From Escherichia phage vB_EcoM_FB, in the sequence record MT682711.1: a stretch of 64,000 bases of DNA; one strand, written 5' to 3'. Positions 9,568 through 40,696 of this stretch are shown here, piece after piece. Under the pieces are notes generated by a model. That model saw only the letters and a list, made by a program, of their open reading frames with translations. It was not told the origin of the DNA and did no database searches. Numbering within the stretch: the stretch's first letter is position 1; each line of letters opens with the position of its first letter. Made by a program: the position numbers and the translations under genes.

Positions 9568-9608
9568 TTGATAGGATAGACTATAACACGTGAGGAGAGG
9601 AAGTAAAC
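9568..9608 (-). promoter_or_regulatory. early promoter-hairpin cassette (PeSL-like), divergent copy
   Basis: Plus strand TTGATAGGATAGACTATAACACG..AGTAAAC; inverted repeat CTCCTCATGTG/CACGTGAGGAG encloses the core and covers the SD. Confidence 0.45.
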
Positions 9609-9609
9609 A

Positions 9610-9927
9610 CTAATCTTCAATTAAATCTTGGTCATAACCAAGTTCAATCAAAAGCGATTTGAAGGCAGGAATATTTTCTATTTTCTTATTATCGACAAAT
9701 ATGACAGGATAGCGTATCGCTAAGCTCTTGAAGCCTGCACGTTTGGCCAATGATACTATAAGAGGCTTGTCGTATACTGCGCCTGACGGCGTCTGGTTAA
9801 TCACAGGATAGAAAGTATGTAGGATAGAAAGGGAATTTAGGAGCGATAGAACAGCAATGCACCCTGGACAGCGCATGACTGTCTCAGGGATACCGTAAAT
9901 CTCAATTTTAGTTAACTTTTGGTCCAC
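9610..9927 (-). CDS. glutaredoxin/thioredoxin-fold protein (CPGC)
   Basis: KIEIYGIPETVMRCPGC redox motif; first codon is GTG with GGAG upstream. Confidence 0.5.
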   Translation of the reverse strand: MDQKLTKIEIYGIPETVMRCPGCIAVLSLLNSLSILHTFYPVINQTPSGAVYDKPLIVSLAKRAGFKSLAIRYPVIFVDNKKIENIPAFKSLLIELGYDQDLIED

Positions 9928-10204
9928 AGGAAATAACTCCTTGGTAGTCCCAAGTTTTTAGAACTTCGTCTTCATTAGTTCCGTATGGGACGTAAATCTG
10001 GATAAGGAACCCGGTATCATCAAAAGAGAAATAGACAGTAGGTTTAATACCATGAATCTCTGACAGAGCATAGATGTCCTTGAGGTCGTCTTCCTTACCT
10101 TTAAAGAATTCAGGGTTCAGGTCACAGTCATGGAAGTACCAATCATCACCAAACTTGTCCCAAGCGGTCCAATTCAAAGCTACATATTCTTCAAAACGTT
10201 TCAT
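9908..10204 (-). CDS. hypothetical protein
   Basis: 98-codon ATG ORF. Confidence 0.4.
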   Translation of the reverse strand: MKRFEEYVALNWTAWDKFGDDWYFHDCDLNPEFFKGKEDDLKDIYALSEIHGIKPTVYFSFDDTGFLIQIYVPYGTNEDEVLKTWDYQGVISCGPKVN

Positions 10205-10416
10205 TCTTTCACCTTCATCATTTTTGCAATAACACTATGAACAGCCTGGATTCGTTTGTCGAACTCGGACCCTTCAAGACCTTTTTCAGTACTCAGAGCA
10301 CCAATAATCATGAACAGCAATCCAAACGGAATAGCCAGGATTAAAAGGCATACGATAAACAGAACTAATGTAATATTGGCCAAGATATCAGAAACAGCAT
10401 TACGAAATTTGTTCAT
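10201..10416 (-). CDS. small membrane protein
   Basis: Hydrophobic core LVLFIVCLLILAIPFGLLFMIIGAL; track start is GTG, ATG at 10416. Confidence 0.4.
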   Translation of the reverse strand: MNKFRNAVSDILANITLVLFIVCLLILAIPFGLLFMIIGALSTEKGLEGSEFDKRIQAVHSVIAKMMKVKE

Positions 10417-10541
10417 TAAAGAACCCACATGTTAGTTACAACAAATAACCATTGAGCAGGATACTCAACACCCATACGGCGGATAATATCATTCATAGAT
10501 TCAGCTAGAGCATAGAATGTATAGCCATAAAAATTAATCAT
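10416..10541 (-). CDS. hypothetical small protein (41 aa)
   Basis: Not in track; GAGGAA upstream; stop overlaps next ATG. Confidence 0.3.
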   Translation of the reverse strand: MINFYGYTFYALAESMNDIIRRMGVEYPAQWLFVVTNMWVL

Positions 10542-10557
10542 TTAAGCGATTTCCTCA

Positions 10558-11631
10558 TTAAGATTTCAAATAAGTTATATAACTTTCCAACCATTCAATC
10601 ATTTCTGATTTTTCGGTGGCAGTCATAGGATTAACTATATCCTTAAAACTGTTAAGCATTACTTGGGACGTAACTTTTGTTTTTTCGGATTTTACCAATT
10701 CAATAGAGCTAAGTTTTTTAATATGCTCTTCTTTGCTTTCGACTACTAATTTAATAGCTCTTCCGTCTTTAATAGCTTTATTAGCCTGTCCACGGGTCAT
10801 ACCATAAAACTCTTCTAACTCAGAATTGGATAAAAATTTTGTGCCTGAAGAAACATCTTGGAATTTATAACGTTGACGAGAAATATCAGGCGGAAGGCCC
10901 CAGCGGCCTTTAATAAGGTCGAGGGTTCCTTGAAGAAGCCTGGTTAGATGGTTGCTACTTAAATCATTATTACGAGCAAACTCGTTTTGATTTAGAACTT
11001 CCACTGCTTTATTTTCTTCATAGTCCCATATAGTAAATTTAGAGCAATTATAGGTAACAGAATGTTTTTCTGTTCTAGAACGGCCTAATTGCCACCCAGA
11101 TTTAATATACTCAGCAACTTCATCGGGTTTAACATACTTAGTTTTCTGGCCGATTTTGTACATCATGGGCCAGGAAACGTGTTCGTTTCCTTTATCAAAT
11201 TCCATCCATCTTGCAATATCATCTTCGGATAAATCGTCAAAGCAGTTAGGGTTGAAATGACCGCCAATTTGTTTGTTGAGCCACATAGGGTCTCGTAAAA
11301 CATCATTGGCTAATTGCATTTCCATTTCGGCCATAAGGGTTTTACCCCAAGTAGGATACCACCCTACAATAAGGTACTCTTTAGGGCTTATACCCTTTTC
11401 TATCATTGCGTTTACTTCATTAGATGATGATGTATAGGTTTTCCAATCAGATTCCTCAAATCCTTTTTTAGGACCACGCTTAAATGTGCATGGCGCGGCT
11501 TTGATTCGTTTCCAAATCTTTTTAGCGCCAACATATTTTTTACCGTCTTCAAAAGTGATTACGTAGACAAACCCGATATGGTTTTTAATATCGGTTTCTT
11601 CAAATACCGCCCAATGACCAAAATCTTGCAT
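10558..11631 (-). CDS. GIY-YIG homing endonuclease (I-TevI-like N-terminus)
   Basis: GFVYVITFEDGKKYVGAKK GIY-x10-YVG motif near N-terminus; 357 aa. Confidence 0.6.
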   Translation of the reverse strand: MQDFGHWAVFEETDIKNHIGFVYVITFEDGKKYVGAKKIWKRIKAAPCTFKRGPKKGFEESDWKTYTSSSNEVNAMIEKGISPKEYLIVGWYPTWGKTLMAEMEMQLANDVLRDPMWLNKQIGGHFNPNCFDDLSEDDIARWMEFDKGNEHVSWPMMYKIGQKTKYVKPDEVAEYIKSGWQLGRSRTEKHSVTYNCSKFTIWDYEENKAVEVLNQNEFARNNDLSSNHLTRLLQGTLDLIKGRWGLPPDISRQRYKFQDVSSGTKFLSNSELEEFYGMTRGQANKAIKDGRAIKLVVESKEEHIKKLSSIELVKSEKTKVTSQVMLNSFKDIVNPMTATEKSEMIEWLESYITYLKS

Positions 11632-11669
11632 GACCTATACCTTTAATAATAATTAGATATAGGTATTTA

Positions 11670-11855
11670 TTATTTTTCAAATGTGCTATAGAACGAGCGA
11701 TGCAACCGTTTAAATTGGCGAATCATCTTTTTGGTAGGACGAGTATACAATCCTACGCAGGTGGCCATAAACTGGTCAGTAGGACTTCCTTTGATAAGAA
11801 GTTTCCAGACCTTACCACCATTTAACTTTTCGGTATAGACTAATTTAGTTTTCAT
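11670..11855 (-). CDS. hypothetical protein
   Basis: 61-codon ATG ORF. Confidence 0.35.
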   Translation of the reverse strand: MKTKLVYTEKLNGGKVWKLLIKGSPTDQFMATCVGLYTRPTKKMIRQFKRLHRSFYSTFEK

Positions 11856-12028
11856 CAGAACGCCCTATCAGAAAAGCGAAGTTGAGCTTCAAGCCAATGG
11901 ATATAATCTGCCGCGGCAAAAATTAAATCAGATTCTTCATCAGATAACTTACGAGAATCTGAAAGCTCGTAAAGCGAATGTTCAATTAGACGGCCTTTAT
12001 GCCGACCTACTTCAATTTTTGTACTCAT
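11855..12028 (-). CDS. hypothetical small protein (57 aa)
   Basis: Not in track; stop overlaps next ATG by 1 nt. Confidence 0.3.
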   Translation of the reverse strand: MSTKIEVGRHKGRLIEHSLYELSDSRKLSDEESDLIFAAADYIHWLEAQLRFSDRAF

Positions 12029-12153
12029 ACCCAAACTCTATATCGATTAATTCATTGTTTGAAGGTTCATTATACTCTATTTCGGAATCGTTGTAAACGG
12101 GTTCCTCTGGCTCGGTAGGTTCTATCGTATCCCACCGAGCGACATACCATGGC

Positions 12154-12880: not shown

Positions 12881-12881
12881 T

Positions 12882-13416: not shown

Positions 13417-14423
13417 TTCAGCAGCTCCAGAGCCTGTTCAAGACGGTCTAAACGATTGGTAGACTCTTCCAAAAGTTTTTTGGCAGCAGTATATTGTCCG
13501 GCCAGTTTTTTGTTGATAGCAAGGGCATCTTTATACGCTTTTTCTAAGGCAACGACTTCTGGTAACTTGGATTTAGTAATTGGTGTAGGGGCCATGATAG
13601 GGCCGTTCAAGTCGTTAATCAAATCTTCTAATGTAGCAGGCTCTTTATCAGTGTTCACAATTTCCTCACATTTTTCTTGGTAAATTTCAGCGTCAGTTTT
13701 TGGAACGGTACATTTGATTTCACGGACTGTTACTAAGACTTCATATCCTTTCCAGCCTAAGTGGTGTTTAACTTCTTGGGTCTCATATTTCTCTACGGTA
13801 TCCATCAGAGCTAAAGCCTGTTCGATAGTATTCAAGGTATCGTAAGCAATATCTTGATACTTTACAACTTCCACATCATCTTTAGGTTTCCTATTAGGTG
13901 ACCAAATAACAGAAATAATAGCTTTTCCTTTATAACTATTTGTTTTAATCATGCAATTAGCCATCGGGTGAATAGTACGACAATCACCGGAAACTATAGT
14001 TTTAGAGGCCGCTTTGAGAATTAATGCAGAGTTAGCCTTGAATTCGCTAACCCAACGTTGCGGAAATAAACTATTAGGGTCCATACCTTTAATTTTGATA
14101 TAACCTTTTATGGTATCACCAAACCATTTGTAGCTAACAACACGGTTGGAACCTGGATATTTCTCTTTGCCAAACTCTGAAAGGATGTCCTTATTGACCA
14201 GTCGCGAAAGCAGTCGAGAACCTTTAAATGTTTTAATGATATCATGAACGCACAAACGGCCTGCAATCTTTTCGATTTCGGCTTTGAAACAGCGCGATAA
14301 TGCATCATCAATTTGGTCGACCCATTTATTGATATTAGAAACTATTACCACATATGGGGTTAATGGAGGGGTATTGGCAGTGATATACGTAGTAAAGGCA
14401 TTAATGTATTCAGTACGAGTCAT
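13413..14423 (-). CDS. hypothetical protein (336 aa)
   Basis: Long ORF; start at ATG 14423 with GAGGAG upstream; C-terminal coiled-coil-like tail. Confidence 0.55.
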   Translation of the reverse strand: MTRTEYINAFTTYITANTPPLTPYVVIVSNINKWVDQIDDALSRCFKAEIEKIAGRLCVHDIIKTFKGSRLLSRLVNKDILSEFGKEKYPGSNRVVSYKWFGDTIKGYIKIKGMDPNSLFPQRWVSEFKANSALILKAASKTIVSGDCRTIHPMANCMIKTNSYKGKAIISVIWSPNRKPKDDVEVVKYQDIAYDTLNTIEQALALMDTVEKYETQEVKHHLGWKGYEVLVTVREIKCTVPKTDAEIYQEKCEEIVNTDKEPATLEDLINDLNGPIMAPTPITKSKLPEVVALEKAYKDALAINKKLAGQYTAAKKLLEESTNRLDRLEQALELLK

Positions 14424-14450
14424 GATATTCTCCTCAGTAGATTTAAAAAG

Positions 14451-14480
14451 ATTATACTCCATCCATCCTTGGATGTAAAC
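14451..14480 (-). promoter_or_regulatory. sigma70-type early promoter candidate
   Basis: Minus strand GTTTACA, 17 nt, TATAAT. Confidence 0.55.
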
Positions 14481-16467: not shown

Positions 16468-16992
16468 TTATGCGAGAACCGTCTTTAAACGCTCTTCAAA
16501 TTTCTGAAGCAGAGCTTGGCGTTCAGCTCGTTGTGATTTGTACTGCTCGATACGACCTGAAGTGAGGGCGTACTGTTCGTTTACTGATTCCCGCATAAAT
16601 TCAGGAATTTCTTTACAAGCTTTGATTTCGACAAACTTGTCAATAACAGCTTGTTGTTCAGCAATCAGATTATCGAAATAAGAGATATCTGATTTAACGT
16701 TTGCCAGGTCAGATTCGGTAGGCATTAAACGTTTGTTACGTTCAGCTTGATAAGCTTGGTTGGTTTCACGACTCCAGTGAAGAGTACGTTTTTTGTTAGT
16801 ATTTTTATAGAGCTCTACAATACCTACTGAATCGATGATAACAATCCAGTTCCAACGGCTTTTGTAAATCTCTCCTCCAGATATGGTAATCTCATTTCCA
16901 CAAGCAGCATCGTTAAAGAACTTGCTTTGTTTTTCAGATTTGAAATTACCGTTATTAAAATTAATCAGTGAAAAAATATCTTTAGCGTTCAT
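16468..16992 (-). CDS. hypothetical protein
   Basis: 174-codon ATG ORF with GGAGG upstream. Confidence 0.55.
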   Translation of the reverse strand: MNAKDIFSLINFNNGNFKSEKQSKFFNDAACGNEITISGGEIYKSRWNWIVIIDSVGIVELYKNTNKKRTLHWSRETNQAYQAERNKRLMPTESDLANVKSDISYFDNLIAEQQAVIDKFVEIKACKEIPEFMRESVNEQYALTSGRIEQYKSQRAERQALLQKFEERLKTVLA

Positions 16993-17007
16993 GTTAACCT
17001 CCAGTAG

Positions 17008-17047
17008 TTGATAGGTCTATAGTATCATTCCTACTGGAGATGTAAAC
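17008..17047 (-). promoter_or_regulatory. early promoter-hairpin cassette (PeSL-like)
   Basis: Plus strand TTGATAGGTCTATAGTATCA..TGTAAAC; flanking inverted repeat CCAGTAG/CTACTGG. Confidence 0.5.
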
Positions 17048-17400: not shown

Positions 17401-18381
17401 TTATTTCAGAAGTGTAACTTCGGCAATTTCAGACCAATCATTAGAATCGGTAGCAATGAAATCAGCCAAATAGAGGGCGGTACGCAATGAAACATTACGC
17501 AAACGTGATACATTAGCCTTCATCCATGAGAGTGCCTGGTAAGTCTGAGCGTCAGTCAGACCACGTTTCTGCATCATATCTGTAGACAGAATAACATCTT
17601 CAACACGAACCATAATCTCTTCGTTAGAGTGAACGCCTAAGTCAAGATAAACGGAACGAGATACTAAAGCCTGAAGGTGTGGAGCAAGTTTAGTACCACG
17701 TTCTAATTCACGGTCAATATCAACGTTAGTGATGAATACGATGGTGCCTTCATACTCAAATTCTTTATCGATATTTTTATCATCAAGATAAGAACTTGAA
17801 GTGCTCCAGCATACCTTACGTTTCTCACCGGTGTCCAATGCCGCTTTCAGAAGGTTCAGGATATCCATATCAGAGAATACATCAACATCATCAATAAGAA
17901 GAACACTATTAGGGCCGCGGTTATTCCAAAGCTGCTCGTAAAGACCGATTCCACTAATCTTTCCGTTGATTGATTTATATTCGATAGTTTCATTTTCGTG
18001 GGCATTCTGTAATGCTTTATCCAATGAATATGTTTTACCAATACCTGCTGCACCAGAGATGATAAGGGAACGAATTTTACCATCGATGATTCCATTAGTC
18101 ATCATATTCATTACTTTAAAACGTTTGTTGATGCGGTGTTTCATTTCATCCTGGGATTCGGTTACGACTGCAGGGGTTTCAACACCTTCAGTCTCGATAT
18201 CAGATTTGAACACCCATACACCACGCTCTACGCCATCAATCTGAACAAAGACCTTACCATCGCCGAGGTGGGCTTCTGATTCATGAATTTTATTAGGGAA
18301 CCAGGTTTTACCTGAACTCATGAACGTACCAGAGATTTCATTACCGCGGTAGATGCCTTTGTTGATTTTGATAGTTAACAT
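17401..18381 (-). CDS. P-loop ATPase (AAA-like)
   Basis: Walker A GAAGIGKTY, Walker B VLLIDDVD; track start GTG, ATG at 18381 with GAAGGA upstream. Confidence 0.6.
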   Translation of the reverse strand: MLTIKINKGIYRGNEISGTFMSSGKTWFPNKIHESEAHLGDGKVFVQIDGVERGVWVFKSDIETEGVETPAVVTESQDEMKHRINKRFKVMNMMTNGIIDGKIRSLIISGAAGIGKTYSLDKALQNAHENETIEYKSINGKISGIGLYEQLWNNRGPNSVLLIDDVDVFSDMDILNLLKAALDTGEKRKVCWSTSSSYLDDKNIDKEFEYEGTIVFITNVDIDRELERGTKLAPHLQALVSRSVYLDLGVHSNEEIMVRVEDVILSTDMMQKRGLTDAQTYQALSWMKANVSRLRNVSLRTALYLADFIATDSNDWSEIAEVTLLK

Positions 18382-18405
18382 TTTATTATCCTTCACTCAT
18401 TTGTT

Positions 18406-18445
18406 TTGATAGGTCTATCTTAACACGTTTAATCAGGTTGTAAAC
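18406..18445 (-). promoter_or_regulatory. early promoter-hairpin cassette (PeSL-like), variant spacing
   Basis: TTGATAGGTCTAT core then TGTAAAC about 5 nt further than in other copies. Confidence 0.4.
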
Positions 18446-21469: not shown

Positions 21470-21706
21470 TCACCAGTATTTGCTAATGGTAGAAATTAAT
21501 TCTTGGACCTGGGCTGTATTCAGTTTACATCCACAACCCTTTAATGTGTCTTTAAGGAGCCACGGTTCCTTGAGCTCGTCCTTTTCTAGACGAATTCTGT
21601 ATCCTCGATAATCGGCGAAGATACTTCGGTCGTCGAATATCTTAATCTCAAGGATACGACCGTTGATTTCATATTCTAACGAAACCGTAGTACTTGTAAG
21701 TTTCAT
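21470..21706 (-). CDS. hypothetical protein
   Basis: 78-codon ATG ORF below a promoter cassette. Confidence 0.45.
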   Translation of the reverse strand: MKLTSTTVSLEYEINGRILEIKIFDDRSIFADYRGYRIRLEKDELKEPWLLKDTLKGCGCKLNTAQVQELISTISKYW

Positions 21707-21723
21707 TCTGTTCTCCTCATTAG

Positions 21724-21763
21724 TTGATAGGTCTATAGTATCATGTTCCTAGAGGATGTAAAC
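21724..21763 (-). promoter_or_regulatory. early promoter-hairpin cassette (PeSL-like)
   Basis: TTGATAGGTCTATAGTATCA..TGTAAAC. Confidence 0.5.
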
Positions 21764-25172: not shown

Positions 25173-25884
25173 AATCAATAAGTCCTCGGTAATCTACATT
25201 AGGGAAGCCATTCTTAATTGCGATTTTACTAAATCTTCCACACTTTGGTTTATTATTATCTACCCATAATTTATATAATTGTGAATACATTGGTTCACGC
25301 CATATAGGAGCCTTTCGCAAAGAGGCCTTTTTCCTTTCTATAGTTTCCTTAGAATTTTGTATGGCTTTAAATTTTTGTCTATTTTCAGGATTTTCAAAAT
25401 ACTTAACCCGTTTTTCAGACATTTTAGCTTTTACTTTTGGCGAATTTAAAATTTCTTTGAGCCGTTCTTTAGAGCCTTCCTTTTCAAAATATTTTATTAA
25501 AGCCTTTGAATGGGCCGCCCTATTTTCATTTTTAGAGAAGAATAAAATTTTATTAATAGATTGCAGTTTTGAAAATGATTCTTTAGCCAACTTATAATTT
25601 TCAGCATCTACAAAATAAGACCTTTGCTTTGAATTTGAAGTAGAGCTCATATTTAGCCAAGCAAAATTCAACCCGTAGTGGTTTGGATTAGCTTTGGCTA
25701 AATACATATGGGCTAAATAGTGTTCGTCAGCATAAAGCTCGACTAAATTGTCTTGGGTGTCAGGACCACCAACACAACTCGGTATTATATGGTGCTTTTC
25801 TGTATAGGCATCATTAGGTGTATCCCTAGATAAGGCAGCATTTATTATTTTATAGTAGTCATATGGATATTTTATAGTTTCCAT
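25150..25884 (-). CDS. HNH homing endonuclease (Mob-like)
   Basis: EKHHIIPSCVGGPDTQDNLVELYADEHYLAH. Confidence 0.75.
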   Translation of the reverse strand: METIKYPYDYYKIINAALSRDTPNDAYTEKHHIIPSCVGGPDTQDNLVELYADEHYLAHMYLAKANPNHYGLNFAWLNMSSTSNSKQRSYFVDAENYKLAKESFSKLQSINKILFFSKNENRAAHSKALIKYFEKEGSKERLKEILNSPKVKAKMSEKRVKYFENPENRQKFKAIQNSKETIERKKASLRKAPIWREPMYSQLYKLWVDNNKPKCGRFSKIAIKNGFPNVDYRGLIDYDFSKKT

Positions 25885-25891: not shown

Positions 25892-26350
25892 TCACAAGTA
25901 AATAACTTTCGTGCTGGTTTTACCTTCTAAACGTTTAGAGTTAACAAATGCCATACGACATTTAAGGGAATATCCTTTATCAGGATGTTTACGGTCTACT
26001 GTCATACCTAGCCATAAGGTTTTATCGGTAATTTCGAGACGCAATGGACGATACACTTTACCAGGGACAATTTCGGATTCTACATCAGGTAGAGGTTCCT
26101 GGATTAAAAATTCATGAATTTCTTTAACATGGTTATGGAGTTGCTTGAATAAAGCAAAAACGTATTTTTCGTCGATTTCACGTTGGATAGCACGGTCCAA
26201 CAAGTGATTAGAGTACTTAATAAAGAAGGCTGGGACTCCGCTCTTGATGGCGGCTTTTTTGATGGACGTATTCAGTTCACGGAATTCGGTTTCGAACTGA
26301 CGACGTAATTTATTGCGGCGGATGAATACTTCTGAATTAATTTCTGACAT
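25892..26350 (-). CDS. regB: RegB-like endoribonuclease
   Basis: 152 aa; EVFIRRNKLRR..HLLDRAIQREIDE matches T4 RegB as recalled. Confidence 0.7.
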   Translation of the reverse strand: MSEINSEVFIRRNKLRRQFETEFRELNTSIKKAAIKSGVPAFFIKYSNHLLDRAIQREIDEKYVFALFKQLHNHVKEIHEFLIQEPLPDVESEIVPGKVYRPLRLEITDKTLWLGMTVDRKHPDKGYSLKCRMAFVNSKRLEGKTSTKVIYL

Positions 26351-26367
26351 TTTGTAATCTCCTGTAG

Positions 26368-26407
26368 TTGATAGGTCTATAGTACCACGTCTACAGGAGA
26401 TGTAAAC
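26368..26407 (-). promoter_or_regulatory. early promoter-hairpin cassette (PeSL-like)
   Basis: TTGATAGGTCTATAGTACCA..TGTAAAC; inverted repeat CTCCTGTAG/CTACAGGAG covers the SD. Confidence 0.5.
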
Positions 26408-26411: not shown

Positions 26412-26621
26412 TTATTCTTGGAATGGGGTAAGTTTTCCAGCAGCTGAACAAATTTCTACCAGTACAGGGTAAAACTCTTTCACTTGTTCAAGGCGTTGGG
26501 CTGCATACTGTACTTCACCTTCTTCGAGACAAGCCATTTGGTCGTCAAGCAAGTATTTGTGGTAGCCAGTACAGGCTTCACCGATAATACGCTGGAAATC
26601 TTGTAAACTTTCAATTTTCAT
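26412..26621 (-). CDS. hypothetical protein
   Basis: Start at ATG 26621 with GAGGAA upstream. Confidence 0.4.
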   Translation of the reverse strand: MKIESLQDFQRIIGEACTGYHKYLLDDQMACLEEGEVQYAAQRLEQVKEFYPVLVEICSAAGKLTPFQE

Positions 26622-26899
26622 CAGTATTTTTCCTCGGGTTGGAAAACGGAACGACACGCCCACATGCTTGCTTCTTTCAGACGGTCAATTGCATTACGAA
26701 TCTGGGTGATGCGTTCATGAGCCTGGTCTAGTTCTTGTTCATAAACCTCTTCGGTATCTAAGTTCATATAATGAGTAACATGTTCTTCTTCCAGAGCTTT
26801 AAACATTAACCCAAGACGAACTTCAGCATCTTTGATAGCTTTTACTTTACCGATTTTATCGTCGGTATGCGGCTTATAACCCTTGATATCTTCAATCAT
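26621..26899 (-). CDS. hypothetical protein
   Basis: 92-codon ATG ORF, ATGA coupling. Confidence 0.45.
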   Translation of the reverse strand: MIEDIKGYKPHTDDKIGKVKAIKDAEVRLGLMFKALEEEHVTHYMNLDTEEVYEQELDQAHERITQIRNAIDRLKEASMWACRSVFQPEEKY

Positions 26900-28087: not shown

Positions 28088-28387
28088 TTAGAAAGAACCA
28101 GAACCTCTAATTGTGTTCTGGCGACCTTTATTTTCTAATTCGGAGTGGTCGATTTCATATGCTTGTGCTACGCCAAAGGCCTTTTTAACTTTAGCTAAAG
28201 AACCTTTAGATGTAACAATATTAAAAGTATTACCTTTGGTAAAATCAACAAAATCGACTTGTACGCCCTGTTTACCGAGGCTTGCTACAATAGCATCAAC
28301 ATATTCTTGGTCTAAATTGCCTTGAACTCCAATTTGAAATGCTTTAGGAGCTTTGGCTTCTGTGATAAATTCTTGATAAGTTTTCAT
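28088..28387 (-). CDS. internal head protein (IPII-like) with capsid-targeting leader
   Basis: N-terminus MKTYQEFITEA matches T4 internal-protein leader; 99 aa. Confidence 0.6.
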   Translation of the reverse strand: MKTYQEFITEAKAPKAFQIGVQGNLDQEYVDAIVASLGKQGVQVDFVDFTKGNTFNIVTSKGSLAKVKKAFGVAQAYEIDHSELENKGRQNTIRGSGSF

Positions 28388-28430
28388 TGTTATTCCTTAA
28401 GTTGATAGAAGTATTCTATCACGGATTTAA

Positions 28431-28847
28431 TTAAGCGTAAATAGCCTTGCCATAATGTTTGTACCAGGTAGGACGCTGTGCAATTTTTTCATCCAAACGG
28501 GTCTGAGATATAGCAATAGAAGCTTCGTGTGGAGTATAGTCACCACGGAATTCCTGAGGAATGTCACTAATGTCCTGGACAGTAGTATCCTTGATATTAA
28601 AACCACGTTTTAAACATTCGGCTATAAGCTCAATTTGTCGCTTACGTAAAAATTCAAGCTTATCGTAAAAGAATGTAACATGGCCTGTGCCAAGGATAAA
28701 AGTAGGACTGATTTTGAAATCACGGACACGTTTACCATTAGCAACATGCTTACGAACTGCACCGAAAACACGTGGTAATTCACGATATTCAGCCATTAAG
28801 TGTTGGTCAGCCAATTCAGATACTAAGGTAAGGTTGATACGAGTCAT
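28431..28847 (-). CDS. denV: endonuclease V (pyrimidine-dimer DNA glycosylase) DenV
   Basis: 138 aa, [31 protein letters not shown].. almost identical to T4 endonuclease V as recalled. Confidence 0.9.
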
Positions 28848-28863
28848 TTTTAATCTCCTGTAG

Positions 28864-28903
28864 TTGATAGGTCTATAGTATCATGACTACAGGAGATGTA
28901 AAC
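28864..28903 (-). promoter_or_regulatory. early promoter-hairpin cassette (PeSL-like)
   Basis: TTGATAGGTCTATAGTATCA..TGTAAAC; inverted repeat CTCCTGTAG/CTACAGGAG. Confidence 0.5.
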
Positions 28904-28927: not shown

Positions 28928-29524
28928 TTAATTACCACGGGCTGCATTAGCAACGGCGTAAGCGTACTGAATATTAGCGTCTTTAAACGTACCTTTAGAG
29001 GTATCTATCTCTGCCTTAAAGCCGCCTTTAACCATAACATCAGCAAATTCTTTACGGAAAGTCATTGCATCAAGACCTTTCCATGCGGATTTATGCTTGG
29101 CAAATTCAAGACCGGCGAAGTTAACTGCTTTAGCCAATTTATTATCAATAGTCCATTTACCTGCTTTAGGTACAAACACCGGGCCTTTCTGTTTAGAGAA
29201 CAGTTTTAAATTCCAGCGACGAAGGTCACCGTCAGCTTTAACAAAAGCTGCGTCCAAGTTACTAGCAACAACATCTTGGATATGGGCAAATTTAAGTCCA
29301 TCAGCTTCAATATTTAGGTCGTTACGCCAGCGAAGTCCTTCCCAGGCGAAAGCTTTAAAGTCGGAAGCTTTTGTAGCCAAGTACCGTTCAATAGGAGCTG
29401 TTTTAGCGTCAAAACCGTTTCCTGGGTTGTCAACGCCGTTTCCTTTGTAAGTCCACTCATCTTTATTAATGCCTTGGACCTTTCCTACAGAAGCTTCGGC
29501 GATAAATTCTTTATACGTTTTCAT
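28928..29524 (-). CDS. internal head protein (IPIII-like) with capsid-targeting leader
   Basis: N-terminus MKTYKEFIAEA; 198 aa. Confidence 0.6.
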   Translation of the reverse strand: MKTYKEFIAEASVGKVQGINKDEWTYKGNGVDNPGNGFDAKTAPIERYLATKASDFKAFAWEGLRWRNDLNIEADGLKFAHIQDVVASNLDAAFVKADGDLRRWNLKLFSKQKGPVFVPKAGKWTIDNKLAKAVNFAGLEFAKHKSAWKGLDAMTFRKEFADVMVKGGFKAEIDTSKGTFKDANIQYAYAVANAARGN

Positions 29525-29562
29525 ACGGGTTCCTTAAAGGTAAATATTTTAATTGGTCTGTT

Positions 29563-29606
29563 CAAGTAACTGTAGATATACTATCACAATTCTAGGAGAT
29601 GTAAAC
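29563..29606 (-). promoter_or_regulatory. early promoter candidate, divergent cassette
   Basis: TGTAAAC present but core replaced by ..GTAGATATACTATCA.. Confidence 0.35.
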
Positions 29607-30005
29607 TTATTTATGGGTCTTCATCCAATTCTTGAACAAAGCCGCGACGTCTTTCTCTTTAACGTTCAGTTTAATGTCCAACATTTTACCACCCGCTGCT
29701 CTGGTTTGGCGAATCTTAGCAGTACCGGTTTCGCCATTCCACTCAACATAATACTGTCCAGTGTTCATTGCAATACCATCACCGTAGTCTTCATTTTTAG
29801 AAGTGGTGAATGCTAGCTTCATAGTCTTAGATACACGAGCCTGCATGCCTGTCTGAAGGGCATTACGAACGCGAATAACCTGAGGAGTGGCCTGGGTCAA
29901 GTTCTCATTCAGTTCTTCAGTGAACTCTTCAGATTCAAACATCGCCAAAAGTTCTTTAGATGCAGGAATTACATTCTCTGCGATAAATTCATTATAAGTT
30001 TTCAT
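29607..30005 (-). CDS. additional internal-protein-like gene with capsid-targeting leader
   Basis: N-terminus [11 protein letters not shown]; 132 aa. Confidence 0.55.
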
Positions 30006-32477: not shown

Positions 32478-32690
32478 TTACTTTTTATTGAAAAAGTACA
32501 TTTTACCTTTAGGAGATAAAGATACACGAAGCGCGTTACCGATACCAACTGAACACTTAACCAAGTCAGCAGATTTCAATTCACCAAATGCTTGACGAAG
32601 GTCTGCATCACGGGTATTAACCATCAGACATTTAGCACCAGCTGCACGAACTTCGTTTAACATGTTGATTGCTTGATTAGAAAGTTTCAT
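32478..32690 (-). CDS. hypothetical small protein
   Basis: Start at ATG 32690 with GGAG upstream; longer track ORF would run through the promoter. Confidence 0.4.
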   Translation of the reverse strand: MKLSNQAINMLNEVRAAGAKCLMVNTRDADLRQAFGELKSADLVKCSVGIGNALRVSLSPKGKMYFFNKK

Positions 32691-32716
32691 TTTATTCTCC
32701 ATTTCACTCTGTTGTT

Positions 32717-32756
32717 TTGATAGGTCTATAGTATCACACCTATAGACCTTGTACAC
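32717..32756 (-). promoter_or_regulatory. early promoter-hairpin cassette (PeSL-like), -35 variant TGTACAC
   Basis: TTGATAGGTCTATAGTATCACACCTATAGACC; inverted repeat GGTCTATAG/CTATAGACC. Confidence 0.45.
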
Positions 32757-33996: not shown

Positions 33997-34197
33997 TCAG
34001 ATAGGACCGTAAAGGTATGTCCAACGTTTAACGAAAGAAACTACTTCTTCCAAGGTATCGAAGACCTCTGTAGTGCCTGGAACGCCATCGCCACTGATGG
34101 TTACTTTAATGCCATCTGAAACTTCCTGGAGGTTAATCTCCAGTTGGTTGGCTTTGGCTTCGTTCAGAACTTTGATTAATTCGTTTGCGATAGACAT
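33997..34197 (-). CDS. hypothetical acidic protein
   Basis: 66-codon ATG ORF. Confidence 0.4.
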   Translation of the reverse strand: MSIANELIKVLNEAKANQLEINLQEVSDGIKVTISGDGVPGTTEVFDTLEEVVSFVKRWTYLYGPI

Positions 34198-34261
34198 TTT
34201 TATTCTCCTGTTCTGATAACGTGATTGTCATCAGTTGATAAGAGAATAGTACCACAGTTTT

Positions 34262-34591
34262 CTAGAGTTGTACATCACTTCTGCAATATTCTAAAAATAA
34301 TTTATTGTTGTCAACTGTATCCCAACGTCGCCAAGATGGATTCCAGACCAAAGCGTTGTCACCACAATCATTGAGCTTAAAATGGTCATAGTACATAGCT
34401 ATATGTCTAGTCTCGTCACCAGAGAACCCTAGTATAGGCTCGCCGTGGGTGTGATACATATGATGGTGCATTGAGAGGTCGCATTTATAAAACATTTCAC
34501 GTTTACCGCGAATGAACAAGAATGCTTGTCCGTTCATATAAAATTCTTTATCTGTTTTTAAAAGATATTTGAATACTGAATCTTTGTGCAT
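34262..34591 (-). CDS. hypothetical protein
   Basis: 109-codon ATG ORF, His-rich stretch. Confidence 0.45.
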   Translation of the reverse strand: MHKDSVFKYLLKTDKEFYMNGQAFLFIRGKREMFYKCDLSMHHHMYHTHGEPILGFSGDETRHIAMYYDHFKLNDCGDNALVWNPSWRRWDTVDNNKLFLEYCRSDVQL

Positions 34592-36595: not shown

Positions 36596-37189
36596 TTACT
36601 TAAGTGAATTGATGTAGTCGTCGATATCAGCAGAAGTCGTATCCATTCCAACTTGTGGGCCTTTAAACGTTTCTACACGCATCAAGGTATCTTCAATATC
36701 AATCTTAGTCAGTGCAGCGATTTCAACAACATCATCGGCAGTAGCAATACCAAGGGCAGCCATATTACGAGTTTCACGGATATACTCGAGCTTAACGGCT
36801 AGTTCCTGACGAGAGTCATCAAGTTCCTTGACCTTAAGCTTAATTTCATTACGCATTTCAACATAATCATCAGCTTTCTTACGAAGTTGAGTAGCCGTAC
36901 GACGATAAAGGAGGCCCAGTTTAGCATGCACCTGAACATCGGCGCCTTCTTTAATCAGCTTACGAATTTCACGTTCTTTAGAACTAGCCAGTTGGTCCTT
37001 TTCATTAGCGAGTTCACGAATACGTTTTTCTTCATTCACAGACTTAACATGGGCAGTCTGGAGCTCAGTGATTTTATCAATCAGAGTAGAAGCAGCTTTA
37101 GTATACTGGTCTTCGATTGACAGGTTCTGAGCCATTGCGGTACCCAGTTTAGAACGGATGAATTCAACGATTTTCTTTAAAGTGTTCAT
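36596..37189 (-). CDS. coiled-coil protein
   Basis: 197 aa, mostly heptad-like charged helix. Confidence 0.5.
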
Positions 37190-37231
37190 AGTATTTCCTT
37201 CAGTTGGTTAAGATTTATAATCCATGAGGAC

Positions 37232-37261
37232 ATTATACCCTGTCCTCTGAGGTTTGTAAAC
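37232..37261 (-). promoter_or_regulatory. sigma70-type early promoter candidate
   Basis: Minus strand GTTTACA, 17 nt, TATAAT; inverted repeat GAGGACAG/CTGTCCTC flanks the -10. Confidence 0.55.
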
Positions 37262-37264: not shown

Positions 37265-37663
37265 TTATTTCATTTTTGCGAGGCAAATTTCATTGGCTTC
37301 CCATTGAGCTTGCTTAATAATAGCTTTGGATACAGGAGCCCTTTGGCCATAAGTTTTTGACGTTGAGAGAACAATACATTTGTTTGCCTCATTATGCCAG
37401 CCCCGTGATTTTTCGCCATGAGTACCTTTAACTACAGCTGACACCTCAACAGAGCAACCACCATCAGAAATCTTGGTTTCGACAATCCATTCATTTCTTT
37501 CGACAGCTTCAAGTTCTAATCTAGTTTTTTCTTCATACATGGCGGCCCAATCAGTTTTTGCCAGGTTGAAAGTGAGAGCTTTCTCCAATTCTTTGGCAGC
37601 TTTTTGTTGTTCAGGCGTTAATGAATTGTACAACTCTTGCATTTCTTTATCTTCGATATTCAT
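37265..37663 (-). CDS. hypothetical protein
   Basis: 132-codon ATG ORF. Confidence 0.5.
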   Translation of the reverse strand: MNIEDKEMQELYNSLTPEQQKAAKELEKALTFNLAKTDWAAMYEEKTRLELEAVERNEWIVETKISDGGCSVEVSAVVKGTHGEKSRGWHNEANKCIVLSTSKTYGQRAPVSKAIIKQAQWEANEICLAKMK

Positions 37664-37720
37664 TATGTTCTCCTCAAATTATGGGCTCATAATATCTTAA
37701 TCATGAGCCCATGTAAACAA

Positions 37721-37984
37721 TTATTTCATATTATTGAAATAATCTTCCGCATCAAAATCGTTATCATGATAAACTTTGGTAGACGATTTAGCATAACCTT
37801 CAGCTGAGAACATATTAACCACAACCTTAATTGTATACCATTGTCCGTCTTCATTACCCATTACAGCATACGTTTCATATACCGGATGTTCAGGACCGAT
37901 AACCTTAATATCGTTAACAGTAGCACCAAATTCTTCAGGAACGCATTTCATAAAGAAATTAAACAATTCACCGTAATTATCCAT
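37721..37984 (-). CDS. hypothetical protein
   Basis: Track start GTG; ATG at 37984 with AAGGAG upstream. Confidence 0.45.
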   Translation of the reverse strand: MDNYGELFNFFMKCVPEEFGATVNDIKVIGPEHPVYETYAVMGNEDGQWYTIKVVVNMFSAEGYAKSSTKVYHDNDFDAEDYFNNMK

Positions 37985-38008
37985 TTTACTCTCCTTCACT
38001 CTGTTGTT

Positions 38009-38048
38009 TTGATAGGTCTATAGTATCATGTTTAAAGGAGGTGTAAAC
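38009..38048 (-). promoter_or_regulatory. early promoter-hairpin cassette (PeSL-like)
   Basis: TTGATAGGTCTATAGTATCA..TGTAAAC. Confidence 0.5.
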
Positions 38049-38099: not shown

Positions 38100-38149
38100 T
38101 TTAACCTAGGGTAACCTTGTCGGGGTTTCACCTGCTAGGCAAGTGTTTG

Positions 38150-38240
38150 TACGATACGCCGGGATTCGAACCCGGTTATTAAGTAGTTGACGCTACTTAA
38201 TATTTTAAAAGGCCATATCTCGACCATATCCGAACGTTCC
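38150..38240 (-). ncRNA. structured small RNA candidate with tRNA-like T-arm
   Basis: Minus-sense GGTTCGAATCC T-loop between CCGGG/CCCGG and a 9-bp hairpin; no canonical acceptor pairing found. Confidence 0.25.
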
Positions 38241-38409
38241 GTCAAAAACGCTACTCGGCTTACGGCAAAGATATTTCCTCGAATCGATAATTCTGTGCGC
38301 CGTTTAAGCTGTGATATAAGGGGTCATTAACAAAACATAAAGATTTATTAATGTCGGTCCTTAAACAGGGAACTTCAGTCCGACGACTTACCGGTAGCGA
38401 CCCGGTTTC

Positions 38410-38760
38410 TTAATATTCTTTTAAAGAATCAATATATTCACGGCGTTTACGCCACAAATCAATTGCTTCATACGCGGATTCAGCATTTCGAATTAGCCGG
38501 CATTTATGTAAAGACTTATGATTTTGATATTGTGTAGATAACGGAATTGTATCTAAAAGGTCTTTACGATCAAAATATTCGTAACCATCTAAACCAAATG
38601 AACGATTTTTGAGAAATTGCCAATGACCATATTCGTTTTCGACATAAACATAATCTGCATGCTGATAAAGCAAATTAATTACACGTTCAGAAATAACAGT
38701 ATCATTATGATTAAAATAGAATGTTAAATCATGAACTACTAAATAAACATTACCTTTCAT
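38410..38760 (-). CDS. hypothetical protein
   Basis: 116-codon ATG ORF with GAGGAA upstream, inside the tRNA cluster. Confidence 0.45.
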   Translation of the reverse strand: MKGNVYLVVHDLTFYFNHNDTVISERVINLLYQHADYVYVENEYGHWQFLKNRSFGLDGYEYFDRKDLLDTIPLSTQYQNHKSLHKCRLIRNAESAYEAIDLWRKRREYIDSLKEY

Positions 38761-38778
38761 ATTTTCCTCACTTATAAT

Positions 38779-38854
38779 TGGTCGAGGCAGTAGGGATCGA
38801 ACCTACGACCTAGGACTTAGAAGGTCCTTGCTCTTCCTTCTGAGCTATGCCCCG
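38779..38854 (-). tRNA. tRNA-Arg (anticodon UCU), CCA encoded
   Basis: 76 nt cloverleaf folded by hand: 7-bp acceptor with one G-U, GG in D-loop, anticodon loop CUUCUAA, T-loop TTCGATC. Confidence 0.8.
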
Positions 38855-38857
38855 TAA

Positions 38858-39490
38858 TTAAAATTTCATTTTTCGACCTTTAAACCATCCTTCTGGAATT
38901 GGGTCAGTTTTCTTAATACGTTTAGAAACTTTTTCATCTAATGAATGAATCCACATCATACCAAATTGGGAATTCTTTTCGCCCTGTTGATGTTTATTTC
39001 TGGCGTGAGATTCTTTCATTTTATTAATAGTTTCAGGAGTATGATGCTTATTTAAAAATCTGCTATTATTTAAAAATTTTTCCCTGTATTCAGGAGTTGA
39101 CCACAAGCGTTTAAATACATTTGAACCATGTTTACGATATTTTTCTTGAAGTAAAATATCACTTTTAAAACGTGACTTAAACGATTTAGCTCCTTTTAAA
39201 CTAGCGTCTTTCTTCTGGTTTAGCATCCCAGGAATATTTATATGGTCCCAACCACCTTCACCACCTAATTTCAAATTATAAACATCAGGGCGCTTTAAAA
39301 ACTCTTCAGTCACAATATTCTTTTCTGACTCAAACATAGAGGTTTTATCGTCAAAGAACTCTCTAATATTTCTTTAGAAAAATTTTCTATACCATACTTA
39401 TCTTGGGCTCTTTTTAATAATTTACCAGAACCCATATATCCATCATCTAAATTTTCGGTAGAATGAGCGCCTATATAGATTTTTATTATT
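38858..39490 (-). pseudogene. decayed GIY-YIG (Seg-like) homing endonuclease gene
   Basis: Upstream frame encodes ..[23 protein letters not shown] with no ATG, stop immediately upstream; downstream 159-codon frame continues the homology after a frameshift at GAGAG. Confidence 0.6.
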
Positions 39491-39567
39491 AATTTTATTT
39501 GTTATTTTATAAATGTAATGGAACATAAATATCTCCTATTTCTAAGAGTATTTATGTTCCCAAAATA

Positions 39568-39638
39568 TGGCCCTGGGTGGAATCGAACCACCATCCAGCG
39601 ATTATGAGTCGCTCGCTTGACCGTCCAGCTACAGGGCC
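39568..39638 (-). tRNA. tRNA with CAU anticodon (Met or Ile2 type), CCA not encoded
   Basis: 71 nt: perfect 7-bp acceptor GGCCCTG/CAGGGCC, anticodon loop CTCATAA, T-arm GGTGG-TTCGATT-CCACC. Confidence 0.7.
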
Positions 39639-39699
39639 TTAATTCTATTATGAAAGGCTCTTTGAGGGAAGAACCTTTGGTAATAGAGGGTACTTATTA

Positions 39700-39724
39700 A
39701 TAATAACACACAACTCTTAAAGCA
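39700..39724 (-). promoter_or_regulatory. MotA-box middle promoter candidate upstream of the tRNA cluster
   Basis: Minus strand TGCTTTA, 12 nt, TATTAT. Confidence 0.45.
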
Positions 39725-39733
39725 TATTACTTG

Positions 39734-40114
39734 TTAACCTTCATCAACAATAGTGTGGGTATTGGCATTAACAATTTGCCACCAGTCGAAACGATTAGAA
39801 CCGTATTGAGGCTTATTCTCGTTTTCTTTAATGATATCACGCAGTTCATCTTCAGTCGCGGCCTTTGCGATTAAGTCGGCATAACCGCCACGGGGATAAT
39901 AGTTATCACCAGCAAAGAGTAAAAAGTTTGTTTTAATATTCTTGAATTCTTCAAGAGTAATAACTGTTCCAGATGGTTGGACAATATCTACGTAACTATA
40001 TCCTAATTTCTGGGCTTCATTTACTGCTTCAAGCAGGGTGTCATGGGCCCATCCAATTTGACAATCCGGTTTTTCAGATGGGTTGGCTTGATAATCTGCG
40101 TACACTTTATACAT
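39734..40114 (-). CDS. hypothetical protein
   Basis: Start at ATG 40114 with AGGTGA upstream. Confidence 0.45.
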   Translation of the reverse strand: MYKVYADYQANPSEKPDCQIGWAHDTLLEAVNEAQKLGYSYVDIVQPSGTVITLEEFKNIKTNFLLFAGDNYYPRGGYADLIAKAATEDELRDIIKENENKPQYGSNRFDWWQIVNANTHTIVDEG

Positions 40115-40115
40115 T

Positions 40116-40301
40116 TTACTCACCTTTAGAGATTTTATCCATAACGAAAGAGATTGAACCAATTAAAAATGCCACTACTAAAGAGATTGTATTCTCAGAA
40201 GTTGTAAGCAAATCCAACATGAATCCTGCAAACATACTAAAACTAAAAGTGGTAATAGCAATAAGGGCAGTAGCATTTCTAATTAATTCACAACGTTTCA
40301 T
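40116..40301 (-). CDS. small membrane protein
   Basis: Track start TTG; ATG at 40301 with GGAG upstream. Confidence 0.4.
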   Translation of the reverse strand: MKRCELIRNATALIAITTFSFSMFAGFMLDLLTTSENTISLVVAFLIGSISFVMDKISKGE

Positions 40302-40326
40302 TTTATTCTCCAATCACTCATTTGTT

Positions 40327-40367
40327 TTGATAGGGCTATAGTATCATCACTAAAGCCCGTTGTAAAC
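40327..40367 (-). promoter_or_regulatory. early promoter-hairpin cassette (PeSL-like)
   Basis: TTGATAGGGCTATAGTATCA..TGTAAAC. Confidence 0.5.
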
Positions 40368-40369
40368 AA

Positions 40370-40630
40370 TTATTTTAGATAAATTGCATATTTTTTATAG
40401 CCAGCTGTCTCGTGGCGCAACCCTTTGTCATTAGCAAAGCGTTCAATATTATTAATTTGGTTTTGGTCGAGTTCTGAAATATCAAATACAAAAAAGTTTC
40501 TCTTATTGCCTAAAGTTACGTGATTAGTCAAATCGATGTTATAGAGATGATTTATATTATCAATCACGGTCTTAACAGATTTGTTAATTTTTACTTCCTC
40601 ATTAAGAATAAATTCTTGATAAGTTTTCAT
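40370..40630 (-). CDS. internal-protein-like gene (IPI position) with capsid-targeting leader
   Basis: N-terminus MKTYQEFILNE; 86 aa. Confidence 0.55.
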   Translation of the reverse strand: MKTYQEFILNEEVKINKSVKTVIDNINHLYNIDLTNHVTLGNKRNFFVFDISELDQNQINNIERFANDKGLRHETAGYKKYAIYLK

Positions 40631-40656
40631 TTTGGGTTCCGTTTGGTTAGTTTGTT

Positions 40657-40696
40657 TTGATAGGTCTATAGTATCATATTTATAGACCTTGTAAAC
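40657..40696 (-). promoter_or_regulatory. early promoter-hairpin cassette (PeSL-like)
   Basis: TTGATAGGTCTATAGTATCATATTTATAGACC..TGTAAAC. Confidence 0.5.

Follow-up and report, generated by a model that had tools for sequence, protein, structure and literature searches.

The 64,000-nucleotide stretch of Escherichia phage vB_EcoM_FB analysed here (sequence record MT682711.1; hereafter 'the window') carries a repeated intergenic cassette along its minus-strand early region. Each cassette appears to be an early promoter placed ahead of a gene, and the spacer between the −35 and −10 hexamers, which RNA polymerase does not require to have any fixed sequence, is recruited in many copies as one arm of an inverted repeat. 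In about half of the copies the other arm includes the Shine–Dalgarno (SD) sequence of the gene. There, as part of the best explanation for the cassettes as a whole, the hairpin probably gates translation by the origin of the transcript: RNA read through from upstream would carry both arms and be closed to ribosomes, whereas RNA started in the cassette would lack the 5′ arm and stay open. Comparative and folding analyses make such a gate the best-supported function for these copies. A first-pass annotation, made from the letters alone, had listed eleven cassettes and likened them to the promoter early stem-loops (PeSLs) of other T4-like phages; the feature appears to be real and wider than first reported, and that interpretation largely right.

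Cassettes resemble T4-type early promoters

By megablast, the window comes from a JS98-like T-even phage of the genus Dhakavirus (Straboviridae) and is ~92–93% identical to AnYang, WG01, MX01 and Bp7 across most of its length. The 20-mer core TTGATAGGTCTATAGTATCA has nine matches with at most three mismatches, all on the plus strand (17008, 18406, 21724, 26368, 28864, 32717, 38009, 40327 and 40657), against 0.01 expected from shuffled sequence. At the sites listed by the first-pass annotation, GTTTACA follows 13–14 nt beyond the core on the minus strand. This heptamer occurs at 17047, 18445, 21763, 26407, 28903, 29606, 38048, 40367 and 40696, coordinates that we use to name the cassettes, and is replaced by GTGTACA at 32756 and by GTTTACT at 9608, where the core is shifted. 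The site at 29606, already described as divergent, shares with the family no more than its −35, the beginning of its spacer and its −10; 9608 is divergent too. All eleven listed sites were recovered, and two members had been missed, one at 28442 (ATTTAC...TGATAGAAT...CTATCAA) and one at 34275 (ATGTAC...TGGTACTAT...TTATCAA). A further core-like match at 5410 was rejected, as it falls within a coding sequence and lacks a −35.

On the minus strand, every copy has the layout GTTTAC (−35), N14, TGATACTAT, AGACCTATCAA, leader, GGAG, ATG. Within it, TGATACTAT comprises TGn and the −10 TACTAT (TGnTACTAT, an extended −10), AGACCTATCAA is the conserved start region, the two hexamers are 17 nt apart, and the leader of 19–47 nt bears GGAG or GGA before the ATG. 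An A-rich stretch (aaaaaagtt, aaaataatt, aaaaagat, ataaaaca and similar) can be read off in the 10–20 nt upstream. GTTTAC-N17-TACTAT with TGn occurs at 13 sites, and GTTTACA-N17-TATAAT, without TGn and without the common core, at four more, which form a second family (8485, 14480, 37261 and 37718, minus strand); all are on the gene strand. Another GTTTACA-N17-TATAAT, at 12098, scores as a promoter and was not counted as a cassette, having neither a hairpin nor a clear gene start. The T4-type early consensus consists of a GTTTAC −35, TGn plus −10, an A-rich upstream element and further conserved bases near the start (PMC2988021, PMC1524935), which in RB69 include C at −3 to −1 (PMC1524935). The window cassettes share all of these with T4-type early promoters, as well as a TAnnnT −10 and the 17-nt spacing, and the same consensus is found in T6. 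With GTTTAC, a 17-nt spacer and TGnTACTAT in gene orientation, then SD and ATG, the promoter reading of the first-pass annotation is well supported, and the cassettes would be T4-type early promoters for host σ70 with an extended −10, each ahead of a gene.

The start site was set by rule, 7 nt after the −10, which places it on the A of ATCAA; what was called the 'core' would therefore span the −10, the discriminator and the initial bases of the transcript. Dhakavirus genomes in IMG/VR each hold roughly a dozen exact copies of the 20-mer TGATACTATAGACCTATCAA. Because T6 (TACTATACAACTATCAA) and a Mosigvirus (TACTATAGACCTGTCAA) carry related versions, the core is a lineage variant of a T-even-wide consensus.

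Promoter spacers are complementary to their own downstream sequence

Published descriptions of T4-type early promoters regard the spacer as carrying no information and say nothing of dyad symmetry, whereas spacers in the window form predicted hairpin arms. We compared the duplex energy of each 17-nt spacer with the −10-to-ATG stretch against 1000 shuffles of the spacer. Of 18 promoters, 12 were more complementary than their shuffles at p ≤ 0.015 (mean z-score −2.97; Fisher p = 6e-17), and in most cases no other cassette's spacer equalled the cassette's own. Three copies, 18445, 28442 and 29606, showed no significant repeat in this test.

Covariation was examined in 39 distinct 'CTATCAAC' cassettes from the window and its relatives, with the SD-type helix held in a fixed register (spacer positions 7–17 against the 11 nt after CTATCAA). 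Bases were paired in 72% of cells versus 63% in shuffles, none of 500 of which reached the observed value, and partners slid out of register paired in 35–51% of cells. Double-sided changes were seen in 8 of the 11 base pairs. The spacer also tracks variants of the core, as in GGTCTATAG/CTATAGACC (GGTCT/AGACC) and GGGCTtTAG/CTATAGCCC (GGGCT/AGCCC, at 40367 in the window), and further matched variants are GATAGGGTA/TACCCTATC, GATAGGACTA/TAGTCCTATC, CAGGGTA/TACCCTG and AGGCTAT/ATAGCCT. The copy-specific, compensating inverted repeats that the first-pass annotation had described in most copies thus hold up against shuffled controls, both promoter by promoter and by covariation. That they are real and selected appears well supported.

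A first strand comparison, of sense and antisense duplex energies in 72 cassettes, was not significant (p = 0.18), and a bias was clear only once distinct helices were chosen symmetrically. Among the 75 helices so chosen, G·U pairs numbered 67 in the sense strand versus 39 in the antisense strand (p = 0.008), and the sense helix was the more stable in 50 cases versus 13; the bias held in both geometries described below. Because both measures lean to the sense strand, structure in the mRNA-sense strand seems to be favoured. The strand evidence for RNA-level structure is moderate, since the copies are related.

Two hairpin geometries and predicted SD occlusion

The 5′ arm of every hairpin, in the spacer or the discriminator, lies upstream of the predicted start, so it would be missing from cassette-started RNA and present only on read-through RNA. 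The 3′ arm falls in one of two places. In the SD type it coincides with the SD region, most stably at 9608, 17047, 26407 and 28903 (−17.6 to −19.3 kcal/mol), with weaker pairing at 21763 and 38048; at 34275 and 14480 the pairing is by way of the discriminator. In the start-site type (32756, 40367, 40696, 8485, 37261 and 37718) it coincides with the −10 and discriminator, and for 24 of the 31 distinct helices it stops at −2/−1 relative to the predicted start.

Partition-function folding gave the probability that the SD is unpaired on the cassette's own transcript and on read-through RNA. It fell from 0.67 to 0.00 at 9608, from 0.60 to 0.00 at 17047, from 0.22 to 0.00 at 26407 and from 0.32 to 0.00 at 28903, with similar predicted changes at 38048 (0.43 to 0.07), 14480 (0.48 to 0.01) and 34275 (0.52 to 0.04) and a smaller one at 21763 (0.65 to 0.27). 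For start-site-type copies, predicted SD accessibility was little altered on read-through RNA. The first-pass annotation had placed the GGAG of the SD in the downstream arm of most copies. This is true of 9608, 17047, 26407 and 28903 and weakly of 21763 and 38048, but not of 32756, 40367 and 40696, the copies behind its example GGTCTATAG...CTATAGACC, where the 3′ arm is the core itself, with the SD uninvolved. Predicted SD occlusion thus covers about half of the copies, not most, and for that half the proposal that read-through RNA hides the SD while cassette-started RNA does not is supported by folding and covariation.

The SD-type cassettes, like all those below, are on the minus strand. At 9608 (9548–9608), ahead of a 60-amino-acid (aa) gp55.6-like open reading frame (ORF; 9368–9550), the −35 spans 9608–9603 and the −10 9585–9580, the predicted start is at ~9573, and arms CTCTCCTCACGTGT (9599–9586) and AACACATGAGGAGAA (9569–9555) give a free energy (ΔG) of −18.3 kcal/mol (z −4.4). 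At 17047 (16990–17047), ahead of nrdC.8 (16468–16992), the arms are ATCTCCAGTAGG (17041–17030) and ACTACTGGAGGTT (17008–16996; ΔG −17.6, z −5.7). The cassettes ahead of regB (25892–26350; cassette 26348–26407, ΔG −18.1) and denV (28431–28847; cassette 28845–28903, ΔG −19.3, z −6.3) both have arms ATCTCCTGTAG and CTACAGGAGAT. Weaker pairing is found at 21763 (21704–21763; TCCTC/GAGGA, z −2.2), ahead of a 78-aa ORF (21470–21706), and at 38048 (37982–38048; ACCTCCTT/AAGGAG, ΔG −11.8, z −2.6), ahead of e.8 (37721–37984). In the divergent cassette 34275 (34195–34275; ATGTAC...TGGTACTAT), ahead of a window-specific 66-aa ORF (33997–34197), the discriminator TATTCTCTT pairs with the SD region AGGAGAATA.

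Among start-site-type cassettes, 32756 (32688–32756) precedes a 70-aa ORF (32478–32690); its spacer arm AAGGTCTATAGG (32750–32739) pairs with the −10/discriminator ACTATAGACCTA (32732–32721), and the helix stops at the predicted start (ΔG −15.9, z −4.7). Its leader holds GGAGAATAAAA, and so does the leader at 40367 (40299–40367), ahead of trna.4 (40116–40301), where the spacer CGGGCTTTAG pairs with CTATAGCCC in a compensated core variant, AGACC to AGCCC (ΔG −14.8, z −3.3). The cassette at 40696 (40628–40696; AAGGTCTATAA / CTATAGACCTA, ΔG −12.7, z −5.2) precedes an Ip9-like internal protein gene (40370–40630).

The second-family promoters bear the same kind of copy-specific hairpin around the −10. 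At 8485 (8414–8485) the hairpin CTCTTGGGACCAG / ATGGTCCTACGGAT spans the −10 (ΔG −14.2, z −3.3). At 37261 (37187–37261), ahead of e.6, GAGGACA / TGTCCTC encloses the −10 and stops at the predicted start (ΔG −13.1, z −2.8), as does ATGGGCTCAT / ATGAGCCCAT at 37718 (37661–37718; ΔG −20.4, z −6.5), ahead of a 132-aa ORF. The promoter at 14480 (14421–14480; z −1.8), where folding predicts a paired SD in read-through RNA, precedes nrdC.4. Finally, the copies without a significant hairpin are 18445 (18379–18445; −10 TGTTAAGAT, z +0.6), ahead of nrdC.10; the divergent 28442 (28385–28442; z +0.4), ahead of a 99-aa internal-head-protein-like ORF (28088–28387); and the divergent 29606 (29522–29606; GTTTACATCTCCT...TGATAGTAT, z −0.4), which has a long leader and precedes ipIII (28928–29524).

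SD-complementary promoter spacers recur at regB in other genera

An SD-occluding promoter hairpin precedes regB in a Mosigvirus (TTCTCCTCTAG/CTAGAGGAGAA), in a Gelderlandvirus (TTTCTCCTCT/AGAGGAGAAA) and in T6, where the sequence upstream of the gene reads GTTTAC-TTTTCCTCTTGACTG-TGGTATAAT-TTTTCTATCAG-TTAAGAGGAGAA-...ATG; the arms differ between them. A Klebsiella phage regB has a start-site-type hairpin instead, and regB of a Krischvirus is without a promoter of its own. We surveyed 42 regB loci in IMG/VR, which represent 29 distinct promoter-to-ATG stretches, and found the anti-SD trinucleotide TCC in the spacer of 25 of the 29. When helices were anchored on TCC/GGA only, the next 7 nt paired at 5.2 of 7 positions with their own partner versus 3.4 of 7 with the partners of other arms (permutation p ≤ 1e-4 across 17 distinct arm types). 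This anchored comparison replaced RNAalifold on a MAFFT alignment of the 29 promoter regions, which returned no structure because the arms lie in different registers and were misaligned.

The excess of complementarity extends to T6 early promoters in general (Fisher p = 7e-7 for 14 promoters), among them that of nrdC.8, which has the design seen at 17047 in the window with different arms. In MX01 an unrelated cassette precedes denV, and its discriminator GTTCTC pairs with the SD GAGAAC; the gating logic would thus have been kept at denV though the sequence was replaced. It is conceivable, and we hold it tentatively as a proposal just short of an even call, that many early-promoter spacers across the Tevenvirinae, T4-type phages included, double as anti-SD arms, and that a group of early genes, of which regB is the most conserved case, would then be translatable and RegB-sensitive only on transcripts from their own promoters.

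Several features of regB loci may be recorded here. T6 regB (33013, minus strand) lies directly downstream of the late lysozyme gene e, and its promoter is inside a 15-bp SD-occluding helix with two sense-strand G·U pairs that are A·C mismatches on the other strand. The CTATCA start-site motif is common to the T6 regB promoter and Dhakavirus. Some IMG/VR regB promoters nest both helices, an outer TCTCC/GGAGA and an inner spacer/discriminator helix, GGGCTATGATACTATAGCCC or GGGCCATGATACTATGGCCC.

Alternative roles for the stem-loops

Some observations weigh against a translational gate. SD occlusion is predicted in about half of the cassettes, and three to four have no significant hairpin, so that a single explanation does not cover all copies. 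The loops of SD-type hairpins are long (~23 nt), and the upstream gene's stop codon lies 20–40 nt before the hairpin; a ribosome finishing that gene might open it. The start sites are rule-placed, and the shuffle and binomial p-values overstate independence because copies and orthologues are related. An effect on transcription or RNA stability is also possible, given that RB49 PeSL stems lowered reporter expression (PMC2839356).

The hairpins might mainly govern RNA decay, by shielding the internal GGAG of long read-through messages from RegB and RNase E. Start-site-type copies would in addition leave the processed upstream message with a protective hairpin at its 3′ end, and RegB would then inactivate promoter-proximal transcripts only. 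The strong RegB/S1 site is GG*AGRAYARAA, and secondary structure protects RNA from RegB (PMC3014915). Exact GGAGRAYARAA occurs four times in the window against 0.37 expected, and all four occurrences are SD regions of cassette leaders (21706–21716, 32690–32700, 34198–34208 and 40301–40311, minus strand), the one in the leader of 21763 reading GGAGAACAGAA. Start-site-type stems, moreover, stop right where the A-rich leader begins. Yet an SD paired on read-through RNA is predicted to be closed to ribosomes and RegB alike, so protection from decay overlaps with translational gating rather than replacing it, and it does not explain why regB itself is the most conserved example. As the main role of the hairpins, we consider it unlikely.

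There is likewise only a small chance that the stem-loops are terminators or attenuators of upstream RNA, which would isolate the gene transcriptionally rather than translationally, as proposed for PeSLs. A PeSL stem-loop of RB49/phi1, placed between a strong promoter and lacZ, lowered expression of the transcriptional fusion (PMC2839356), and the hairpins in the window lie between genes, are stable (−12 to −20 kcal/mol) and show a preference for the sense strand. But no T-run follows any cassette stem, and an intrinsic-terminator scan calls none of the stems, so a PeSL-style terminator role is unsupported by the sequence here. What the scan does find are true terminators upstream of three cassettes, which thus already have a separate terminator ahead of the −35: clear intrinsic ones at 18445 (canonical, 18487–18470) and 21763 (21801–21776), and a terminator-like hairpin with a T-run at 38048 (~38100–38070). 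SD-type loops of ~23 nt would also make poor terminator hairpins, and termination leaves unexplained why the 3′ arm is so often the SD and why 25 of 29 regB spacers carry an anti-SD. A strong hairpin is present in none of the three terminator-preceded cassettes versus 7 of the 10 other core cassettes; these small numbers hint that terminator and hairpin may be alternative ways of insulating a cassette.

Cassettes and rearrangement of the early region

The minus-strand early region, assigned from annotated relatives, covers 8–43 kb of the window. Its genes run in the order 55, nrdH, nrdC, nrdC.4–.11, rI, tk, vs, regB, denV and ipIII, then e, nudE, e.6, e.8, the tRNAs, trna.2–.4, internal proteins, 57B/57A, 1, 3 and 2. 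Cassettes had been said to flank denV, regB and the internal-protein genes, and regB, denV, ipIII and the Ip9-like gene do adjoin them. The cassettes match no known RNA family in Rfam, which reports only two tRNAs in the window.

We located breakpoints by blastn against WG01, JS98, MX01 and AnYang. Synteny breaks fell at 9 of 13 core-cassette gene boundaries versus 25 of 65 others (one-sided Fisher p = 0.04), an enrichment that was lost when the second family was added (9 of 17 versus 25 of 61, p = 0.27); the second-family boundaries themselves had breaks in 0 of 4 cases. Breaks map at 18445 (18460|18689), 28442 (28358–28400), 34275 (33942|34245, at the −10), 38048 (38065/38100) and 40696 (40615/40633|40701), and 29606 is the junction of an orf132 transposition relative to JS98.

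Gene content around the cassettes also differs among relatives. WG01 and JS98 have the order terminator, cassette, ORF93, cassette, nrdC.10, with a 39-nt identical direct repeat, where the window, MX01 and AnYang have a single cassette. In the window, the 132-aa ORF (29607–30005) separates e from the ipIII cassette, whereas in JS98 it separates ipIII from the denV cassette; in both phages it is followed by TAAATAAGTTTAC(A/T)TCTCCT. MX01 and AnYang have an extra ipII between ipIII and denV, ahead of a denV cassette unlike the window's. An insert in the window (26415–26622) is bordered by AAAG(CA)GTTTACA repeats, and identical spacers occur with different leaders and vice versa. A cassette in JS98 (~36599, minus strand) is chimeric, combining a GGTCTATAG spacer with an AGCCC core that resembles its neighbour's at 36233, and its hairpin has gained a mismatch; it looks like the product of a crossover between adjacent cassettes. 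The modular shuffling suggested by the first-pass annotation is thus borne out by the breakpoint excess and by clear single cases, as a modest effect.

Other large inserts specific to the window are homing endonuclease genes. Two routes to plasticity have been named for T4-like phages (PMC4122927), and the cassettes and homing endonuclease inserts found here agree with them. A 357-aa ORF (10558–11631, minus strand) with a SegE-type GIY-YIG homing endonuclease domain (Pfam E = 4.8e-34) sits where WG01, JS98, MX01 and AnYang hold gene 49 (endonuclease VII), a gene that tblastn with WG01 gp49 did not find anywhere in the window. Between regB and vs.1, a 244-aa ORF (25150–25884, minus strand) matches the PHROG homing-endonuclease family phrog_655 (E = 2.9e-36) and is missing from all four compared relatives (break 25076|25899). 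Adjoining gene 55, the window-specific segment 6822–7555, also missing from all four, holds a 231-aa ORF (6811–7506, minus strand). The most rearranged part relative to other phages is the tRNA region (38100–39730), which starts at cassette 38048; the window has two tRNA genes (Arg-TCT and Met-CAT, 38779–38854 and 39568–39638, minus strand) versus three in JS98 (Arg, Asn and Met).

That the inverted repeats act on DNA with no RNA role, as hairpin or cruciform recombination hot spots or as by-products of inter-cassette recombination, could account for the breakpoints at cassette boundaries, the recombined spacers and leaders, the JS98 chimera and the ORF of WG01 and JS98 between cassettes sharing a direct repeat, and PeSL mini-circles have been reported in RB49 (PMC2839356), but it is very improbable given that wobble pairs are biased to the mRNA-sense strand, that the arms are copy-specific and compensated although SD-type pairing would tend to break under recombination in the shared core, and that the 3′ arm targets the SD across genera despite otherwise different cassette sequences.

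Relation to known promoter–hairpin systems

PeSLs are defined by an AT-rich stretch, an early promoter, a stem-loop, an SD and an ATG, and the stem-loop may be between the −35 and −10 or overlap the −10 (PMC2839356). They are known from RB49/phi1 (Arbiol et al. 2010, PMC2839356) and from T4/PST and KVP40/nt-1 (Comeau et al. 2014, PMC4122927). The resemblance drawn by the first-pass annotation is apt, as early promoter, AT-rich stretch, stem-loop, SD/ATG and clustering in variable regions are all found here. Like PeSLs, the cassettes are compact intergenic units, repeated many times in variable early regions, that adjoin indels and gene swaps, and the published stem positions ('between −35 and −10', 'overlapping −10') are those seen in the window. 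PeSL-like sequences had previously been mentioned for JS98, though only near gene 43. Published PeSL stems, all read as terminators, pair a G-tract with a C-tract (RB49), A3-4G3 with C3T3-4 (nt-1) or, at a position upstream of the promoter, AGNA with TCNT (T4/PST). In contrast, the arms in the window are copy-specific and lack a T-run, the 5′ arm is the promoter spacer, and the 3′ arm either is the SD (about half of the copies) or stops at the start site (the rest). Pairing of the SD is described in neither PeSL paper (PMC2839356, PMC4122927).

The mechanism proposed for the SD type has a precedent in T4 e, soc, 49 and I-TevI, which yield protein only from transcripts whose promoter lies within a hairpin that sequesters the SD (PMC3014915). 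In these genes, as predicted for SD-type cassettes, long transcripts close the SD or AUG, and a start between the arms gives an open message. At seven sites (9608, 17047, 26407, 28903, 38048, 14480 and 34275) the SD is predicted to be paired on upstream-started RNA (0.00–0.07 unpaired), and the own transcript, from the predicted start, lacks the 5′ arm. However, the internal promoter of the T4 genes is late (or middle), which postpones translation, whereas that of the window cassettes is of the early σ70 class and supplies its own spacer as the 5′ arm. Because the promoter is early, translation would be confined to the first minutes of infection. The arrangement also recurs at many genes. By this analysis, the cassettes would work like the T4 e-type hairpins and are none of the described cases. 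We found no description of an anti-SD arm in an early-promoter spacer, or of its conservation at regB, in the accessible literature, which leaves older subscription literature uncovered. What appears to be new, relative to that literature, is the anti-SD arm built into the early-promoter spacer; a cassette of the PeSL kind is already known.

A proposed switch by transcript origin

We propose that SD-type cassettes, whose 3′ arm coincides with the SD region, shut read-through RNA to ribosomes and probably to RegB, the nuclease that cuts at GGAG, as well, while the short transcript from the cassette itself remains accessible. For regB, denV, nrdC.8 and others, this would tie translation to the brief activity of their own early promoters and shield it from upstream or later transcription. 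In start-site-type cassettes the hairpin would end 1–2 bases before the start and leave the SD free; its role there is less certain and could be to mark or shield the upstream message's 3′ end, or to slow read-through. The ~40-bp conserved promoter could double as dispersed homology for gene insertion, loss and movement.

T4 early expression ends within minutes, and the shut-off of early promoters is still described as not understood (PMC3014915, PMC2988021). The T4 regB early promoter is shut off after 2–3 minutes, and RegB cuts its own SD (PMC3014915). If the gate proposed here operates across the Tevenvirinae, it would be a general switch by transcript origin that fixes the immediate-early window independently of promoter shut-off. 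A hairpin of this kind would offer a protein-free means of restricting early products that are toxic or dose-sensitive, the RegB nuclease for instance, to the first minutes, and these would stay silent on later read-through RNA, for example where T6 regB lies behind the late lysozyme gene. The mobility of the cassettes would be explained as well: each would bring its own transcription start together with insulation from its neighbours, so that cassettes could shuffle without upsetting the expression of adjoining genes. For phage engineering, they would then be ready-made, context-independent expression units of ~60 bp.

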